From a virus (taxonomy: Duplodnaviria > Caudoviricetes): a stretch of 48,215 nt of DNA. The stretch is from IMG/VR virus record IMGVR_UViG_3300038393_000577, positions 1 to 48,215 of that record; one strand, written 5' to 3'. Position numbers and translations under genes: made by a program. Positions within the stretch are counted from its first letter, which is position 1; each line of letters begins with the position of its first letter. Positions 349 to 48,215 of this stretch are shown one piece after another. Below the pieces are notes generated by a model. That model made no database searches. It was not told the DNA's origin and worked only from the letters and a program-made list of their open reading frames with translations.

Positions 349-413
349 GAGCAGGATTGCTCGCAGGAGAGGCTCCAGACTTGCGCCTTGAACTCCCCCC
401 TACGCGGAATCCT
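349..413 (-). ncRNA. Intercistronic two-hairpin/pseudoknot module, copy A
   Basis: AGGATT, long stem with GCAA loop, then GAGC-AATCCT-GCTC hairpin, then SD. Confidence 0.65.
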
Positions 414-627
414 ATGCGTAAGTTGTAAGGACTACGTCCTGTGCCTGAATTGCGAAGCAACCATCGCAGAGGAATTCGCCAGTCGCCTCGTCGTAGCTAT
501 TGTCGTGAATCCTGACAAAATCCTCCGGGGAGAGGTTCATGAAATGAGCTGCGAGAGTTACTGCGGGAATGTCCCTTGCGATGCGGTCGCAGCAGGTGCA
601 TACAGGTGTGGGGAAATGTTTTCTCAT
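412..627 (-). CDS. Small Cys-rich, putative zinc-binding protein
   Basis: AAGGAG SD before ATG at 627; CTCC and CDGC motifs. Confidence 0.75.
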   Translation of the reverse strand: MRKHFPTPVCTCCDRIARDIPAVTLAAHFMNLSPEDFVRIHDNSYDEATGEFLCDGCFAIQAQDVVLTTYA

Positions 628-4406: not shown

Positions 4407-4642
4407 TTCTCCGTATATTGTTGATCCGCGAAGTATTCGAGAAATTCTGCGCCGATGCCTGAGACAGTATGGTATGTTATCTCGGGGCGAGTTCCACGAA
4501 CTATGATCTGGGTTTCATTTCCTAGTCTCTGCATGCATAGTGCGCGATGCGTATCTGTTATTTTTACCTCCTTCCACCCATGCTCTTCACAGAACTTTTT
4601 AAATTCCTCCAGCACTTCCTTGGGGAATATTCCTCTTTGCAT
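4403..4642 (-). CDS. Hypothetical protein
   Basis: AGGAGG SD; coupled to the next gene. Confidence 0.75.
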   Translation of the reverse strand: MQRGIFPKEVLEEFKKFCEEHGWKEVKITDTHRALCMQRLGNETQIIVRGTRPEITYHTVSGIGAEFLEYFADQQYTEK

Positions 4643-5860: not shown

Positions 5861-6036
5861 TTCGTATGCTCCTCTTGTATTGCCAGCGTGACGTTCTTCC
5901 ACTGTGACATATTCAAATTGATATAGGATTTTGCTTCATCTGAAAGTGGAAATATTCGCACAGTTGTTTGCACTCCACCTCCGATATTTACAGCTGCTCC
6001 GTAGTCTGAGACAATTACTGCTAGCTTTATTTCCAT
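5857..6036 (-). CDS. Hypothetical protein
   Basis: 3' part of ORF 5857..6516; AAAGGA before ATG 6036. Confidence 0.65.
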   Translation of the reverse strand: MEIKLAVIVSDYGAAVNIGGGVQTTVRIFPLSDEAKSYINLNMSQWKNVTLAIQEEHTK

Positions 6037-6368: not shown

Positions 6369-6829
6369 TTAAATTCGCCTCCGTCGATGTCAGATAGGTA
6401 TTCTGTTTTACTAGTTCCCTCTGCCCGAAGTCTACGCAGATGCCAATCTCCGTTTGGACCCTTGAGCTTTTCCAATTGCTCCTCCAGCTCAGCAATCCGT
6501 TTGTCTCGGGGATCATCTTTATGCTCCCCCTTGACTATTTGCTCGAGGTCAGTTTTAAGCACAAGAAACTCCTCCCGAATTGCCTCGAGATGTTCCTTCA
6601 TACTGTCATCCGCCTGGAGCATATCCCGGAGAGTCTTAGGCTGCAACGCTGTCAGCTCATCGACTACTGCCTGGAGATCATGTCTCCAGCGATCTATTCC
6701 GTTATATGGCTGATAAAAAAAGATAAAACGATCAAGAGCTGATGCGACTTCCCTTCTTACCTTATCATTGGCTTCGGAAGCATCCGGGAGAACGTATCTG
6801 GTTTCTGGTGTCTGATTGTCTGGTGTCAT
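6365..6829 (-). CDS. Coiled-coil hypothetical protein
   Basis: Coupled ORF; KRIAELEEQLEKL heptads. Confidence 0.8.
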   Translation of the reverse strand: MTPDNQTPETRYVLPDASEANDKVRREVASALDRFIFFYQPYNGIDRWRHDLQAVVDELTALQPKTLRDMLQADDSMKEHLEAIREEFLVLKTDLEQIVKGEHKDDPRDKRIAELEEQLEKLKGPNGDWHLRRLRAEGTSKTEYLSDIDGGEFK

Positions 6830-8071: not shown

Positions 8072-8093
8072 AAAAAAGCCCTCCGAAGAGGGC
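8072..8093 (-). terminator. Rho-independent terminator ending the first early operon
   Basis: GCCCTC-TTCG-GAGGGC-TTTTTT. Confidence 0.9.
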
Positions 8094-8131
8094 CAGGAGA
8101 CTTTCCTTTCTACTGGAAGCTCCTTTCTGGT

Positions 8132-8368
8132 TCATCTTTTCTCCTTCAATTCCTCAGCCTCTCGTTCCAATTGCCTTCTGCTTTCCTCCAGACCTTTTCG
8201 ATTCGTCTCCTTCCCGCACTCAACGGCTATCTTCTGAGCCAATTCCCAGACTTGTTCCCATGTCATCTGAATCTGATGATAGGTGCCCCGTGTATCAGGC
8301 AAGCCCAAATGAACCTGCTCATCGTCAATCCGCTCGACGACCATTCCGAAGCTATCATGCAGTGCCAT
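8132..8368 (-). CDS. Hypothetical early protein
   Basis: AGGAGGAGAGAGG SD region. Confidence 0.8.
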   Translation of the reverse strand: MALHDSFGMVVERIDDEQVHLGLPDTRGTYHQIQMTWEQVWELAQKIAVECGKETNRKGLEESRRQLEREAEELKEKR

Positions 8369-8392: not shown

Positions 8393-8575
8393 TTACAATT
8401 CAATCTGATCGTTCGGATTGTGCTGCTCTTTATGCCAGATAAATGCCTCCAGCATGGCCTGTAATTTCTTAGCCTCTTCCAATGAAAGCCTTACATCTGA
8501 CACCACACCTTTATCATCAGTGAACATCATATGTGCTGATTGTTCCCCGCTGTAGAAGTAAGTAACTTTGTCCAT
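8393..8575 (-). CDS. Hypothetical early protein
   Basis: AAGGAG SD; preceded by RNA module copy B. Confidence 0.8.
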   Translation of the reverse strand: MDKVTYFYSGEQSAHMMFTDDKGVVSDVRLSLEEAKKLQAMLEAFIWHKEQHNPNDQIEL

Positions 8576-8591: not shown

Positions 8592-8652
8592 CGGCAGGAT
8601 TGCCGTCACAGGAGACTCAGACTAATTCCTGAATCCCCTGTGGCTATATCCT
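8592..8652 (-). ncRNA. Intercistronic two-hairpin/pseudoknot module, copy B
   Basis: AGGATA; CACAGGGGATTCAG/CTGAGTCTCCTGTG stem; CGGC-AATCCT-GCCG. Confidence 0.65.
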
Positions 8653-8654
8653 AC

Positions 8655-8822
8655 TTATACCTCATCAAGCTGCTGCCGAAAATTCCCGAGCGCCATAACC
8701 ATCACGCACTCTTCATCCCGCAGCACCGTCCCATCAGCTATATCCTTAGCCTCCGAATCCGTATCGACTGTAGCCAACCAGATCAATGCGCCGCCGACTT
8801 CCGACTTAAAGACTCCGTACAT
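8655..8822 (-). CDS. Hypothetical early protein
   Basis: AAGGAGG SD before ATG 8822. Confidence 0.75.
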   Translation of the reverse strand: MYGVFKSEVGGALIWLATVDTDSEAKDIADGTVLRDEECVMVMALGNFRQQLDEV

Positions 8823-8844
8823 ATTTTCTTCCTCCTTATCAACT

Positions 8845-8902
8845 GGACAGGATTGTCCCGCCAAGACACTAGACCTCAGGCCTAATGCCTTGGAAGAATC
8901 CC
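8845..8902 (-). ncRNA. Intercistronic two-hairpin/pseudoknot module, copy C
   Basis: GGGATT; CCAAGGCATTAGGCC/GGTCTAGTGTCTTGG stem; GGAC-AATCCT-GTCC. Confidence 0.65.
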
Positions 8903-8906
8903 CTAT

Positions 8907-9053
8907 CTATTCATTATACGTTACTTGAAAGTTAACTTTCTGCTCCGCGAAACAGACCACGAATCTAACGAACGCCTGCTTATCTTGAGGCCAGTTGAAT
9001 GTAGCATGTTCCGGTTCACCTGTATCATCATGCCACGAGACAATTATCTGCAT
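8907..9053 (-). CDS. Small hypothetical protein, 48 aa (not in the ORF track)
   Basis: MQIIVSWHDDTGEPEHATFNWPQDKQAFVRFVVCFAEQKVNFQVTYNE; fills the gap up to module C. Confidence 0.65.
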   Translation of the reverse strand: MQIIVSWHDDTGEPEHATFNWPQDKQAFVRFVVCFAEQKVNFQVTYNE

Positions 9054-9061
9054 CTCGTCCA

Positions 9062-9589
9062 TTAGGCTACTTCCTCGTCCAATTGATCTGTTTCCAGCTC
9101 CAGATCAATATCATCCACAGTCATATTGCCCTTAGCCTCTTTCTTCAGGCGCTTGGATTTGATCTCCGCCATTTCCGCAGCGATTGCCTTATTACTGATC
9201 CAAGATTTTCTCTTGTCCTGATTAGCCTTTTCGACCGCAGCCCGGACGACTTCCGCAGGCACTTTCTTCAGCTTACTCAACGCCTCGATCAAATCCTCGA
9301 TCTGTTGCTTATTCCCTGCTTCCCGGCCCTTGGTCCATTCCTTCTGAGCCAATTGAGCCTTCAGCTCCGTCAACGCCTCCAGCGCCTTGCCATATTCTTT
9401 ACCTTTCGACAAGTTCGCGCAGGCATCGCCCAATCTTTGACTGATCCCATGCAGGGCAGCCCGTTCCCAATTCTCAGGACTGACATCAGACTTATTAACT
9501 ACTACCTGTTGCCCATTGCCTAATGTGAACGTAACCTTATCCCCGTTGATTTCCTTGTCTAGAAAGGGAACCTTTTTCTCGTCGCTCAT
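9062..9589 (-). CDS. Hypothetical protein, paralog of 1993..2547
   Basis: AAGGAG SD; collinear similarity to 1993..2547 including DIDLELE. Confidence 0.9.
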   Translation of the reverse strand: MSDEKKVPFLDKEINGDKVTFTLGNGQQVVVNKSDVSPENWERAALHGISQRLGDACANLSKGKEYGKALEALTELKAQLAQKEWTKGREAGNKQQIEDLIEALSKLKKVPAEVVRAAVEKANQDKRKSWISNKAIAAEMAEIKSKRLKKEAKGNMTVDDIDLELETDQLDEEVA

Positions 9590-9616
9590 TTCTTTTCTCC
9601 TTTGAACTTGAAATAT

Positions 9617-9669
9617 GGGCAGGATTGCCCCAGATAGGCACTGTCGCCAATACCTATCGAGAGTTTCCT
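9617..9669 (-). ncRNA. Intercistronic two-hairpin/pseudoknot module, copy D
   Basis: AGGAAA; GATAGGTATTG-GCGA-CAGTGCCTATC; GGGC-AATCCT-GCCC. Confidence 0.65.
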
Positions 9670-9823
9670 ACTCACTCACATAATTTACTTTGAAATCATA
9701 GTGTCTGTCCATTAGCTCTTTAATATAATCATCAGCCAATTTCCTATCCACTGGCGATGTATTATACTTCGTAACCAATGCCTCTCCGTTAATCCACCGA
9801 GTGATTACTATCGTATTTACCAT
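9668..9823 (-). CDS. Small hypothetical protein, 51 aa, first early gene (not in the ORF track)
   Basis: GGGAGG SD; MVNTIVITRWINGEALVTKYN...DFKVNYVSE. Confidence 0.7.
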   Translation of the reverse strand: MVNTIVITRWINGEALVTKYNTSPVDRKLADDYIKELMDRHYDFKVNYVSE

Positions 9824-9844
9824 TTCCTGCCTCCCTTGTCCACT

Positions 9845-9913
9845 GGTCGAAATTGACCGGAAGGAGGACTCGCCACCTAATTACTACCGCAAGTCCCCTA
9901 TCCATTCAATTCC
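9845..9913 (-). ncRNA. Two-hairpin/pseudoknot module, copy E
   Basis: GGAATT; GGGGACTTGC/GCGAGTCCTC stem; GGTC-AATTTC-GACC. Confidence 0.6.
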
Positions 9914-9939
9914 AAAGGAGGAGAAAAGATGAATCCACA

Positions 9940-10070: not shown

Positions 10071-10098
10071 ATTATACACCAGCCCGCGAGGATTGCAA
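10071..10098 (-). promoter_or_regulatory. Sigma70-type early promoter
   Basis: TTGCAA-N16-TATAAT at the strand-switch point. Confidence 0.7.
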
Positions 10099-20336: not shown

Positions 20337-22616
20337 ATGGCTCAATTCGCTTCTGATACATTTACCGGCGCAGACGGCACAGAGCTATCTGCTTATAACC
20401 CGGCTTGGACTAACCGGCTGCGTAACGGGGCCGAGAATTGCGTACTGACTGACGCCAACAGGGTTCGCGGCCCTAACAATAATAACGAGTATTATCATTC
20501 CGGCACTCCAGCCTCTGCTGATTATTCTGTATCGGCAGACTGCTACATAGCGTCGTTCGTCTCGACAATAAGTGCGAGCGTTTTCGCTAGAGCCTCCACC
20601 ACTGTTTCATACGGCTATTTTGCAACACTTTATCTAGGCACAGGGATAAGGCTATACAAGCAGACTAGTGGAGGGTTTTCTCAGCTTGGCACTTATGCCT
20701 ACACATTCACAGCCGGGACAACCTACAACCTCAAGCTATCAGTATCAGGATCAAGCCCTGGGTCTGTAGTTCTTAAGGCGTATCTGGATGGCGCTGAAGT
20801 TCTAAGCTACACAGACTCATCCTCTCCTCATTACGCAGCTGGGAAAGCCGGTATACGCTTCGCGAATCTAGGCGTAACGTCGAACAACACGACTCACATC
20901 CACATTGACAACTTCAGCGCGGATGACCCCTCTGCGTGGGTAGATCTAACAGGTGTTGGTAACATCAGTAGTGCAGAGGCTGTAGGTTCCCCGGCCATCA
21001 GCACAGTAGCTCCAACGGAAATTACTGAAGTAGGAGGAATAACCTCGACGGAGAGTTTCGGCTCTCCTGCTGTTGCTTTGGGCGGGTTCTCCCCGAGCAT
21101 AGACAGTTTAGCTACACCTATCTACATAGGGCATGGCGGCAATAAGCAGATGTATCCCGAGCAGAGCCATACCGGATTTAACGCGAGTGTAGCGTCGGGA
21201 GAACTATTCCTGGACTTCGACGTGTGGCCTTTAAACGGCGGCAGTCCTATGGCCGTCATGCACGATGATCAGGTCGGCAGGACTACGGACGGTACTGACT
21301 ATATCGCAAACAAGAATGTGACGCAGTGGCATGCTCTGCACCTCGACCCGACCTCTGGCGGCTGGTTTGGTGGAGGTTACCCTGATACAGAAGCCCCGCC
21401 ACTTCTCAGCGAGGTCCTGAATAATCATGTAACTAATGCTGTTTTCTCGATAGAGTGCAAGCCGACAACATCCTCCCCGATGGATGTATTGCTGGCCGAG
21501 CTATCCACAGCAGGAATCGGCCTGAATCAGGCGTTGGTGTCCAGTTTCACAGCTTCGCACATGGCACAGATTAATGCAGCCGGTTACAAAGCCATGTATC
21601 TGACAGGCGGTTCCACGCCAGTTGCAACAACGCAGAGCTATGGAGTTGATTGGGTGGGCGTGCCTACTGCCATGTCCAATGCGCTGATAGGCGAGTATCT
21701 TGCGGCTGGAATAAAAGTCGTAGTTTGGACAATCAACCGGCGCTATTTGCGCGACCCTTACGTAGCCGCGAATCCGACAATAACCGGCTTCTTCTCCGAC
21801 GACGCCAAATATCTCGGAAGCTCAACAGCTATCCGCACCGCTGATAATTTCGCCTCCCAGACATGGGATTTCGGCATGTATTCAGCGGATGATCTGCTGA
21901 CTGCGGCAAGTCGGGGAGAGTTTTTTGCGCCCGATTACTGGGGTTACTCATCAACCGAGGCTACTATTCGCGGCTGTTTGATGGGCTTCCTTTGCCCCGT
22001 AGCCGATCCCACTGATTTCACTCTTGACCTTAAGATCACTTTCGATTCTGCTGACCTCGGAGACAACACAAAGTGGGCGTCAGTCTTTATCGGCACGACA
22101 GATCAGCCTTACAGAAACTTGGCTAGCGGACACAATGGCTATCACATTCAGTTCGCAAAAGATGGAAGCATAGCCATCTATCTGAAGGTCGCAGGACTCG
22201 CTCCCTCACTGCTCAATTCTGTAAGCGGAACAACGATAGCGGATGGGGAGGAGAAGAGTTTCCGTATAACTGTCACGCCCACTCAGATAAAGGCGGCTCA
22301 GGTCTCTGGCGGCACTGACATTACTGCAAACACAGTAAGCAACTCATCCTATCGTGGCGGTTACATTTCGCTGAGCCGAAACGGATTAGCTTGTAAATTT
22401 AGGGACTTAAGCATTAATGCAGATGCTGGTTGGACTGCAACAGCAGTTTTCACCGAGGAAGATGATATAATCAGCAGTACGTTATTTGATCTGGTCGTGT
22501 TAGCTGGTTCTTTTACTGATGAAGATGACGAGGTTGCATCAAGAATTTCAACGCCTGCGCGATGGACAATAGCTTCTGCTATTAGCGGCACTTGGACAAA
22601 GCAAGGCTCACTTTAG
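20337..22616 (+). CDS. Tail appendage protein: lectin-like domain, glycerophosphodiester phosphodiesterase (GDPD) domain, lectin-like domain
   Basis: IGHGG...PEQS, DFDV, VMHD..VGRTT, IECK, VWTIN and FFSDD follow the GDPD motif order. Confidence 0.8.
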   Translation: MAQFASDTFTGADGTELSAYNPAWTNRLRNGAENCVLTDANRVRGPNNNNEYYHSGTPASADYSVSADCYIASFVSTISASVFARASTTVSYGYFATLYLGTGIRLYKQTSGGFSQLGTYAYTFTAGTTYNLKLSVSGSSPGSVVLKAYLDGAEVLSYTDSSSPHYAAGKAGIRFANLGVTSNNTTHIHIDNFSADDPSAWVDLTGVGNISSAEAVGSPAISTVAPTEITEVGGITSTESFGSPAVALGGFSPSIDSLATPIYIGHGGNKQMYPEQSHTGFNASVASGELFLDFDVWPLNGGSPMAVMHDDQVGRTTDGTDYIANKNVTQWHALHLDPTSGGWFGGGYPDTEAPPLLSEVLNNHVTNAVFSIECKPTTSSPMDVLLAELSTAGIGLNQALVSSFTASHMAQINAAGYKAMYLTGGSTPVATTQSYGVDWVGVPTAMSNALIGEYLAAGIKVVVWTINRRYLRDPYVAANPTITGFFSDDAKYLGSSTAIRTADNFASQTWDFGMYSADDLLTAASRGEFFAPDYWGYSSTEATIRGCLMGFLCPVADPTDFTLDLKITFDSADLGDNTKWASVFIGTTDQPYRNLASGHNGYHIQFAKDGSIAIYLKVAGLAPSLLNSVSGTTIADGEEKSFRITVTPTQIKAAQVSGGTDITANTVSNSSYRGGYISLSRNGLACKFRDLSINADAGWTATAVFTEEDDIISSTLFDLVVLAGSFTDEDDEVASRISTPARWTIASAISGTWTKQGSL

Positions 22617-47704: not shown

Positions 47705-48215
47705 CTATGAAAAGAGGGCTAGTTGGAAATTGTCCACATCTACGGATTGGAGGTGCAGGTCGAAGCGGATGCAGGACGGGCACTCCTCGACGTAGGTAGT
47801 TGTGGTGTTGACGATTTGCGGGAGACGGGAGTGGGCGGAGTCTGCGGGGAGGGAACAGTCCCAGAGATAGCCCTTGGTCTTGTGCTTGTGCCTTATTAAA
47901 ATATTCCCGAGGAACTCCTGCTCCCCCTGGCAACACTTGCAGATCTGGGTGACGAGGTGAGCTACCCGCGCGACTGGCTTCCAGGGGGAGGTCTCGCCCA
48001 TCAGCATGGAGATGCGATTCGCTTCTTTTCCCTCAGACACCTGGACGACTGATGGAAGAGGATTCTTGGATTTTGCACTCCTGACGGCTAGGCCGAGGGC
48101 GGGCTTCTCCTTTTTCTTCTTGCCGAATTCGGAGTCGATCTCCATGAAAAGGGCTTCCGCGGCCTTGCGCAAGCGCTCCTTTTCTTCCGGGGATTGCTCA
48201 GGCTTCTTATTGGCG
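47705..48215 (-). CDS. Zinc-ribbon protein with C-terminal QLALF (true start at 176, across the junction)
   Basis: CKCC and CPSC motifs; the frame stays open through the terminal repeat. Confidence 0.85.
   Translation of the reverse strand, partial: ANKKPEQSPEEKERLRKAAEALFMEIDSEFGKKKKEKPALGLAVRSAKSKNPLPSVVQVSEGKEANRISMLMGETSPWKPVARVAHLVTQICKCCQGEQEFLGNILIRHKHKTKGYLWDCSLPADSAHSRLPQIVNTTTTYVEECPSCIRFDLHLQSVDVDNFQLALFS
48057..48215. repeat. Terminal direct repeat, right copy
   Basis: Matches 1-159 with one mismatch. Confidence 0.95.

Follow-up and report, generated by a model that had tools for sequence, protein, structure and literature searches.

The minus strand of the phage genome analyzed here (a complete phage record of 48,215 nt, taken in full and called the window below) carries five copies of an RNA module that are probably RNase III processing sites like those of phage T7, at which the downstream product would refold a conserved hairpin, P2, at its 5′ end and ahead of the ribosome-binding site (RBS). 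The module is real and widespread, and unrelated phages have it in tandem arrays between their early genes. What the sequences supply for this reading is repetition, strand specificity, covariation in the lower stem and in P2, two mutually exclusive predicted folds and a fixed register. We infer from them that the RNA would be cleaved on one strand only, leaving a 3′ guard on the upstream piece and a protective P2 with an open RBS on the downstream piece.

The modules of the window and their distribution

The ends of the window overlap by 159 nt (1–159 and 48057–48215, 1 mismatch), which makes the contig either circular or terminally redundant. Its plus strand encodes the virion block (terminase, portal-type protein and capsid) and its minus strand small genes and replication genes; the closest terminase in GenBank is that of Microcystis phage Mel-JY34 (44%). 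The virion block also includes a 759-aa protein (20337–22616) in which a Pfam match (GDPD, E 1e-10) marks a glycerophosphodiester phosphodiesterase domain. Copies B–E of the module lie within one minus-strand operon extending from a promoter at 10098–10071 to a terminator at 8094–8077, which is presumably early, going by its position, promoter and gene size. Copy A lies outside that operon, within a later transcription unit. The features are as follows:

10071..10098, minus strand: putative σ70-type promoter (TTGCAA-16-TATAAT; consensus scan, 10/12) at the head of the first early operon
9845..9915, minus strand: copy E, in the leader; predicted extended hairpin of 24 bp; P2 at 9858–9845; predicted cut between 9859 and 9858
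9668..9823, minus strand: 51-aa early ORF, its TAG overlapping the 5′ strand of copy D; no PHROG or Pfam match
9617..9673, minus strand: copy D; predicted extended hairpin of 22 bp; P2 at 9630–9617; predicted cut between 9631 and 9630
9062..9589, minus strand: 175-aa conserved early protein, no assigned function; module in front in the window, L002 and L128
8907..9062, minus strand: 51-aa early ORF, its TAG 7 nt 5′ of the copy C hexamer
8845..8907, minus strand: copy C; predicted extended hairpin of 26 bp; P2 at 8858–8845; predicted cut between 8859 and 8858
8655..8822, minus strand: 55-aa early ORF, its TAA 5 nt 5′ of the copy B hexamer; 39% identity with an L002 ORF
8592..8654, minus strand: copy B; predicted extended hairpin of 24 bp; P2 at 8605–8592; predicted cut between 8606 and 8605
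8393..8575, minus strand: 60-aa early ORF downstream of copy B
8132..8368, minus strand: 78-aa ORF, the last one of annotated size in the operon, with no module in front
8077..8094, minus strand: intrinsic-terminator-like hairpin ending the operon
349..417, minus strand: copy A; predicted extended hairpin of 27 bp; P2 at 362–349; predicted cut between 363 and 362

A first-pass annotation of this DNA had reported five minus-strand copies (349–413, 8592–8652, 8845–8902, 9617–9669 and 9845–9913), each with a purine-rich 5′ hexamer, a long hairpin (P1), a short hairpin (P2), a Shine–Dalgarno sequence (SD) and a start codon, and all of these elements were found in all five. The short stems indeed vary as GAGC/GCTC, CGGC/GCCG, GGAC/GTCC, GGGC/GCCC and GGTC/GACC, and the P2 loop matches the hexamer (AGGATT or GGGATT with AATCCT, and GGAATT with AATTTC in copy E), with 6/6 positions paired in copies A, C and E and fewer in B (5) and D (4). 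As also claimed, four of the five copies begin at or just after a stop codon, the in-frame stop preceding the hexamer by 1 nt (A and D), 5 nt (B) or 7 nt (C); copy E occupies a leader position without a gene upstream, and copy A overlaps the TAG of an ORF ending at 412 and is followed by a GTG start at 325. The long stems contain 2–5 G·U pairs per copy, and the sense strand is the more stable one in 5/5, with folding z-scores of −3.6 to −6.3 against −0.3 to −4.0 for the antisense strand, consistent with the proposed structured RNA on the sense strand. Our module descriptor returned 5 modules in the window, compared with 0 in 95/100 and 1 in 5/100 dinucleotide shuffles, and its scan of the window did not find a sixth copy.

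The genes between the modules turn over: 3/6 of the operon ORFs are unmatched in the same region of the close relative L002, among them the 51-aa ORF at 9668..9823, which gave no tblastn match there. By contrast, the 175-aa gene is 88% identical in L002, and the syntenic gene of Mel-JY34 is also preceded by a module. This protein has 1,779 relatives and a paralog at 1993–2547 (39% identical), and by sequence the two paralogs belong to a large unannotated family of phage early proteins. The paralog is preceded by its own σ70 promoter at 2657 and the gene at 9062–9589 by the module; Mel-JY34 apparently has two genes similar to the paralogs.

Several further observations concern the operon and its surroundings. 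A 15-nt pyrimidine tract in the leader (9933–9919, minus strand) is a perfect complement of the SD-ATG/stop region at 8145–8131 (minus strand) at the far end of the operon, the duplex being predicted at −30.9 kcal/mol and at −27.3 kcal/mol in L002 (~4510–4555 with ~6650–6700), and it comes close to full complementarity with several of the operon's RBSs (−14 to −28 kcal/mol); a leader–trailer helix or an anti-RBS is a possible reading of this sequence. A T-rich and then A-rich 12-mer (9951–9940, minus strand; ~4505–4516 in L002), located downstream of a hairpin in the early leader, has what we take to be a resemblance to rrn boxA and may load antitermination factors. Between 7280 and 8080, ~800 nt are free of long ORFs and contain AT-rich palindromes, a poly-T run and short direct repeats; a comparable tract, also with short repeats, occurs in L128. 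This region of the window is likely an origin or packaging region.

Modules recur well beyond the window. The close relative L002/L124 has five copies, L128 three, L046 at least two, ctMlz233 two and Mel-JY34 two in the syntenic region, while L161 has five in a row at successive junctions. A first pattern scan of the collection gave 120 loci, with L046 alone a clear module, and blastn of the modules against cultured phages returned nothing useful. A descriptor without the 5′-strand term found 62 modules in 36/126 loci and later 69 in 45/202, and no row was removed by hand from either set. Beyond the window we scanned 7 phage records from GenBank, of which Mel-JY34 and ctMlz233 alone were flagged as having modules; the descriptor scan found none in PaMx41, Kuura, LS06-2018-MD01, EBPR podovirus 3 or VS-ABTNL-3. 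Mel-JY34 is the one cultured phage found to carry modules.

P2 was also sought by itself, as the small hairpin followed by SD and ATG and with nothing required upstream; the estimate was 370 viral stretches (from 21/64 parts of the collection) against 76 with the loop reversed (whole collection). For the three commonest loops there were 75 matches (21/64 parts) against 10 reversed (whole collection). These forward and reversed counts indicate that the P2 signal is strand-specific. A double-stranded DNA operator, which would be expected in either orientation, does not fit the bias of 75 to 10 for these loops.

The module belongs to no Rfam family as far as the window goes, where Rfam 15 gave 0 matches at the gathering threshold, and the modules and P2 hairpins in 60 homologous loci gave nothing at threshold either. 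Copy D resembles freshwater-2 (RF02980) and preQ1-II (RF01054) in weak cmscan matches (20 of 49.9 bits and 16.5 of 47 bits), both driven by the SD-AUG tail, and we rejected its membership of either family because the scores are below threshold and rest on that tail only. A literature search returned no description of the element, which may be listed among the candidate motifs in the supplements of Weinberg 2017 and Fremin 2023. It is not mentioned in the passages found of the main text of PMC5737381, its motifs are absent from six supplement files of PMC10690425, and the main text of a 2026 ribozyme preprint never uses the words phage, pseudoknot or RNase III.

Covariation and two predicted alternative folds

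The pairing of the P2 loop with the 5′ hexamer, which the first-pass annotation had seen in five copies, is borne out by covariation in homologs. We used permutation tests for this. Across 62 modules the fit of the 5′ strand to its own loop was 4.78 compared with 4.02±0.11 for permuted loops (0/5000), and for the 44 modules found by P2 plus SD alone the values were 4.64 and 3.95 (0/5000). With one module per locus (n=31) they were 4.60 and 4.05 (1/5000), run-length counts not being significant in that set. Since modules are related to one another, the p-values are inflated. An earlier test that used a loose P1 finder was weak (3.65 vs 3.50, 52/2000), and a compact-stem rule was used afterwards. 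In L161, each of the 5 copies fits its own loop best. The P2 stem covaries as well. Between the loop and the downstream SD there is no covariation (4.37 vs 4.48 permuted).

In its predicted ground state the RNA forms a single long hairpin, roughly two helical turns in length, with P2 melted. The minimum free energy (MFE) structure was a single nested extended hairpin of this kind in 50/69 modules, with the upstream strand paired to the P2 loop and the linker lying opposite the 5′ arm of P2; in 16/69 modules P2 was kept in the MFE. Over the 50 modules the energy gap favored the long form by a median of −4.3 kcal/mol in ViennaRNA, which folds nested structures only and has no pseudoknot term, so that this comparison leaves a pseudoknot outside. 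Masking the 16 nt upstream of P1 restored P2 in 67/69 modules, and P2 is thus predicted to re-form once the upstream strand is lost.

The same covariation could be taken to mean that P1, P2 and the helix between 5′ strand and loop coexist in a compact pseudoknot that protects the 5′ end or enhances translation, as the first-pass annotation had it. The covariation of loop and 5′ strand, with each L161 copy fitting its own loop best, and that of the P2 stem are both expected of such a fold. The pairing on which it was based stands, yet every covarying pair also forms in the plain nested hairpin, so a pseudoknot is not needed as the main reading. In the 47/69 modules whose register is set by the loop alone, linker length minus the P1–P2 spacer was 3–4 in 33/47, and linker positions +2 and +4 were complementary to the 5′ arm of P2 in 35/47 and 39/47 modules, respectively (expected 46% and 45%), whereas complementarity at +1 and +3 was not significant (19/47 and 22/47). 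The linker length, we infer, would also suit a crossing of P2, and the covariation of linker and arm is mixed: among the 13 arms other than GGGC, the arm's own linker is the better match for 4, the poorer match for 5 and an equal match for 4. The length and the mixed covariation count for the pseudoknot, and the complementarity at +2 and +4 weakens it, as does the RNase III register described below, which it does not predict; we regard it as quite unlikely. Loop covariation of this sort is easily misread as a pseudoknot, which calls for caution.

An alternative that makes use of both folds is a switch gated by translation and involving no cleavage, in which a ribosome terminating on the upstream gene melts the lower stem, P2 forms and the next initiation is coupled or insulated. 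Consistent with this, the stop codon lies 10–17 nt before P1 in 32/48 modules with an upstream ORF, and the fold flips in the 67/69 modules noted above when the upstream strand is masked. However, a hairpin that starts at the stop codon is also expected from genome compaction, no gene lies upstream of copy E, the SD lies outside both folds in most copies and, as already stated, does not covary with the loop, and gating does not predict a register at −12, −11 and −5. As the whole explanation we judge gating unlikely. It can act as a modulator compatible with cleavage: terminating ribosomes could tune the cut, although compaction accounts for the stop spacing equally well.

An RNase III-type register in the long hairpin

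The predicted dimensions of the long hairpin agree with those of an RNase III substrate. Among 49 extended modules (the 50 above without L134, whose arm is atypical), helix length had a median of 21 bp and was at least 18 bp in 48/49; the predicted helices of the five window copies span 22–27 bp, or about two turns. Published passages give an RNase III valley of ~22 bp (PMC6212723) and a minimal helix of 11 bp (PMC1540722), and the distance from the apical loop to the start of P2 was 11–14 nt in 37/49 modules and at least 11 in 44/49 (13–18 nt in the window copies). Parts of the same two papers (PMC1540722, PMC6212723) describe a UA/UG distal box with G at position J, and a strong preference for A-U at position D, where G-C is inhibitory.

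We then examined 38 dereplicated modules, 34 of which have an arm long enough, with the cut placed at the first base of P2, and compared them with 4,829 control registers in 1,220 hairpins from the same loci. An A-U pair occupied −5 in 27/34 modules compared with 25% of control registers, G occupied −11 in 25/34 (32% of controls), the U·G pair −11 in 19/34 (7%) and the U-A pair −12 in 13/34 (11%). The U·G pair occurred in at most 6 modules at every offset from −4 to +6 except 0. The RNase III signature of the upper stem (−12 U-A, −11 U·G, −5 A-U) is thus confined to a single register, which places the cut immediately 5′ of the first base of P2. In the window, the distal box is U-A/U·G in 4/5 copies and U-A/C-G in copy E. 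In register, copies B and C have U-A at −12, U·G at −11 and A-U at −5; copy D has U-A, U·G and U-A; copy A has U-A, U·G and G-C; and copy E has U-A, C-G and an unpaired −5. The first-pass annotation had called the long hairpins unrelated in sequence; this does not hold at −12 and −11 relative to P2, where U-A and G, respectively, are common to 5/5.

Because of a one-base ambiguity of numbering in the papers, we calibrated the register on the T7 sequence. The rule of G at −11 plus A-U at −5 picked positions 891, 1469, 3139, 5888 and 6449, each one base past the known cut; for 891, 1469, 3139 and 6449 the cut coordinates, on which the T7 windows were centered, are those we assume to be correct. 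A second candidate register appeared at two of the T7 sites, and none before gene 0.7. The remaining cut, matched by 5888, is placed at 5887 in a passage of PMC8708148.

These results are best explained by cleavage followed by refolding, and among the options listed by the first-pass annotation it is the mRNA processing or stabilizing element that agrees with this reading. The full-length RNA would fold as the long hairpin beginning at the upstream stop codon; host RNase III would bind the upper stem and cut its 3′ arm immediately before P2, cutting only one strand. The upper stem would stay on the upstream piece and guard its 3′ end, and the downstream piece would refold P2 at its new 5′ end, 14–31 nt ahead of the start codon, where P2 would shield the end and keep the RBS open. 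The early message would in this way become a set of separately stabilized pieces in the T7 fashion, with the refolding step added. A 5′-terminal hairpin can protect an mRNA end; the predicted products of the five window copies all begin with a hairpin (−5.7 to −8.7 kcal/mol), and P2 lies a median of 20 nt from the start codon. That single cuts leave stabilizing 3′ hairpins is noted in the part of a review available to us (PMC3867540).

The T7 sites R0.3, R0.5, R1, R1.1 and R1.3 resemble the phage copies in being intercistronic two-turn hairpins with an internal loop, located in an early operon with an RBS downstream. They share the −12/−11/−5 register with the modules, and copies B, C and D have the pair classes of R1.1. 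Unlike in T7, the 3′ arm of the module also supplies one arm and the loop of another, conserved hairpin, which would refold once the RNA is cut. The lower stem begins at the stop codon of the gene upstream, and P2 is also found alone behind promoters; 4/5 of the T7 products are without a 5′ hairpin (0 to −1.2 kcal/mol), R1.1 reaching −5.8 kcal/mol. Stabilizers of the ompA and papA type are stem-loops at the 5′ terminus of an mRNA. Like them, P2 is short and GC-rich and lies ahead of the RBS, at a 5′ end or close to it, but it arises both by predicted cleavage and by initiation, it has the conserved form GGGC-RAHNYY-GCCC, and when promoter-proximal it often lies ~7 nt inside the transcript.

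Some observations count against RNase III. Copy A has G-C at −5, a pair known to inhibit binding of the E. coli enzyme according to passages of PMC1540722, and −5 is unpaired in copy E; P2 persists in the 16/69 MFE structures mentioned above, and linker positions +1 and +3 gave no signal. Reliance on the distal box is weakened by the review cited above, according to which the box lacks conservation between substrates or species (PMC3867540), and the RNase III of this phage's host may have other requirements.

Cleavage could also be intrinsic, the module being a self-cleaving ribozyme. Its intergenic position and refoldable 5′ product would fit the logic of ribozyme insulators as set out in part of PMC8601185. 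Nevertheless, the modules match no Rfam ribozyme, their sole invariant unpaired base is A2 of the loop (49/49), and the conserved pairs are the ones that RNase III reads. We saw no sign of a ribozyme or of a riboswitch, and a ribozyme seems to us extremely improbable.

P2 outside the modules and implications

RNase III does not account for the P2 hairpins that stand alone behind promoters or before genes typical of integrative and conjugative elements (ICEs). P2 lay behind a σ70-like promoter in 15/110 viral matches compared with 22/2,200 random positions, and all 15 cases were among the 85 matches that have no module, that is, no long hairpin. The −10 box ends 13–14 nt before P2 in 10/15 of them, which puts P2 roughly 7 nt inside the transcript, so that a role as terminal cap is not the whole story. 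In Mel-JY34 (L125), P2-like hairpins lie directly behind promoter-like sites at ~42458 and ~1714, and as this phage also has full modules, both contexts occur in one genome.

In GTDB genomes we estimated 620 P2 stretches (from 13/64 parts, with the forward pattern only and no reversed control). Many precede DUF2958, RadC and DUF932 genes, as judged from 10 proteins hand-picked for identification, and P2 also precedes chromosomal dapA in several Rhodobacteraceae-type genomes. The motif YTGAC has its 3′ end exactly 30 nt upstream of P2 in 22/90 of the GTDB cases. A conserved ~150-nt sequence lies upstream of P2 (at 1525–1538 and ~2313–2326 in L348, for example) in loci L343–L464, and this sequence, in front of the P2 of DUF2958, RadC and DUF932 genes, also matches 272 plasmid records. 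For the ICE copies, a reading as Frpo-like promoters on single-stranded DNA, as described in parts of PMC12672017 and PMC13478746, was not supported, the L348 fold being no better than its shuffles (z −0.44). We found no P2 in the leading regions of F or ColIb-P9 that were fetched.

Conservation of the P2 loop where it has no pairing partner suggests a sequence-specific role of P2. Tentatively, then, and with a good deal of doubt, P2 (GGGC-RAHNYY-GCCC before an SD) may be a 5′-leader signal read in a sequence-specific manner by a host factor or the ribosome, common to unrelated phages and ICE-type elements and placed before genes needed immediately after entry into a cell, and which phages would expose either by promoter placement or by RNase III unmasking. 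The stalk recognized by RNase III would have its lower stem overlapping the upstream stop, and cleavage, possibly tuned by ribosomes, would unmask P2 gene by gene.

If P2 is read by a protein, it could be an operator RNA like those of Aca1 and Aca2, hidden or exposed by the long hairpin, to which RNase III may bind without cutting. The conserved and strand-specific P2 sequence (75 vs 10) and the G-C at −5 of copy A would fit this reading. P2 also shares with the Aca1 and Aca2 5′-UTR motifs, as presented in part of PMC13551039, its occurrence in early phage operons and its position downstream of the transcription start, with ~20 nt separating it from the start codon; those motifs, which belong to anti-CRISPR operons, resemble the modules in occurring also between genes. 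On the other hand, the Aca1 motif and its Aca2 counterpart have a different stem according to that description, which in the parts seen includes neither a bistable long hairpin nor an RNase III register, both features of the module. We identified no cognate HTH or RHH regulator for P2 and no regulator shared among the phages, the 175-aa family, the one that was sought, not being found in 5 module-bearing contigs (2 of them at least 90% complete; this comparison had no positive control), and P2 also precedes the chromosomal dapA. We consider an operator very unlikely.

RNase III cleavage with refolding of P2 would mean that many unrelated phages, as yet uncultured, process their early mRNA in the T7 manner, and it predicts the cut to the nucleotide. 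If it is true, the module would be a natural part that combines a cut with an insulator, through which one host enzyme yields separate messages with the same 5′ end, and a shuffled array of small early genes would be split into separate messages. If the stand-alone P2 is the same signal, it would represent an unrecognized shared route by which newly arrived DNA expresses its first genes.
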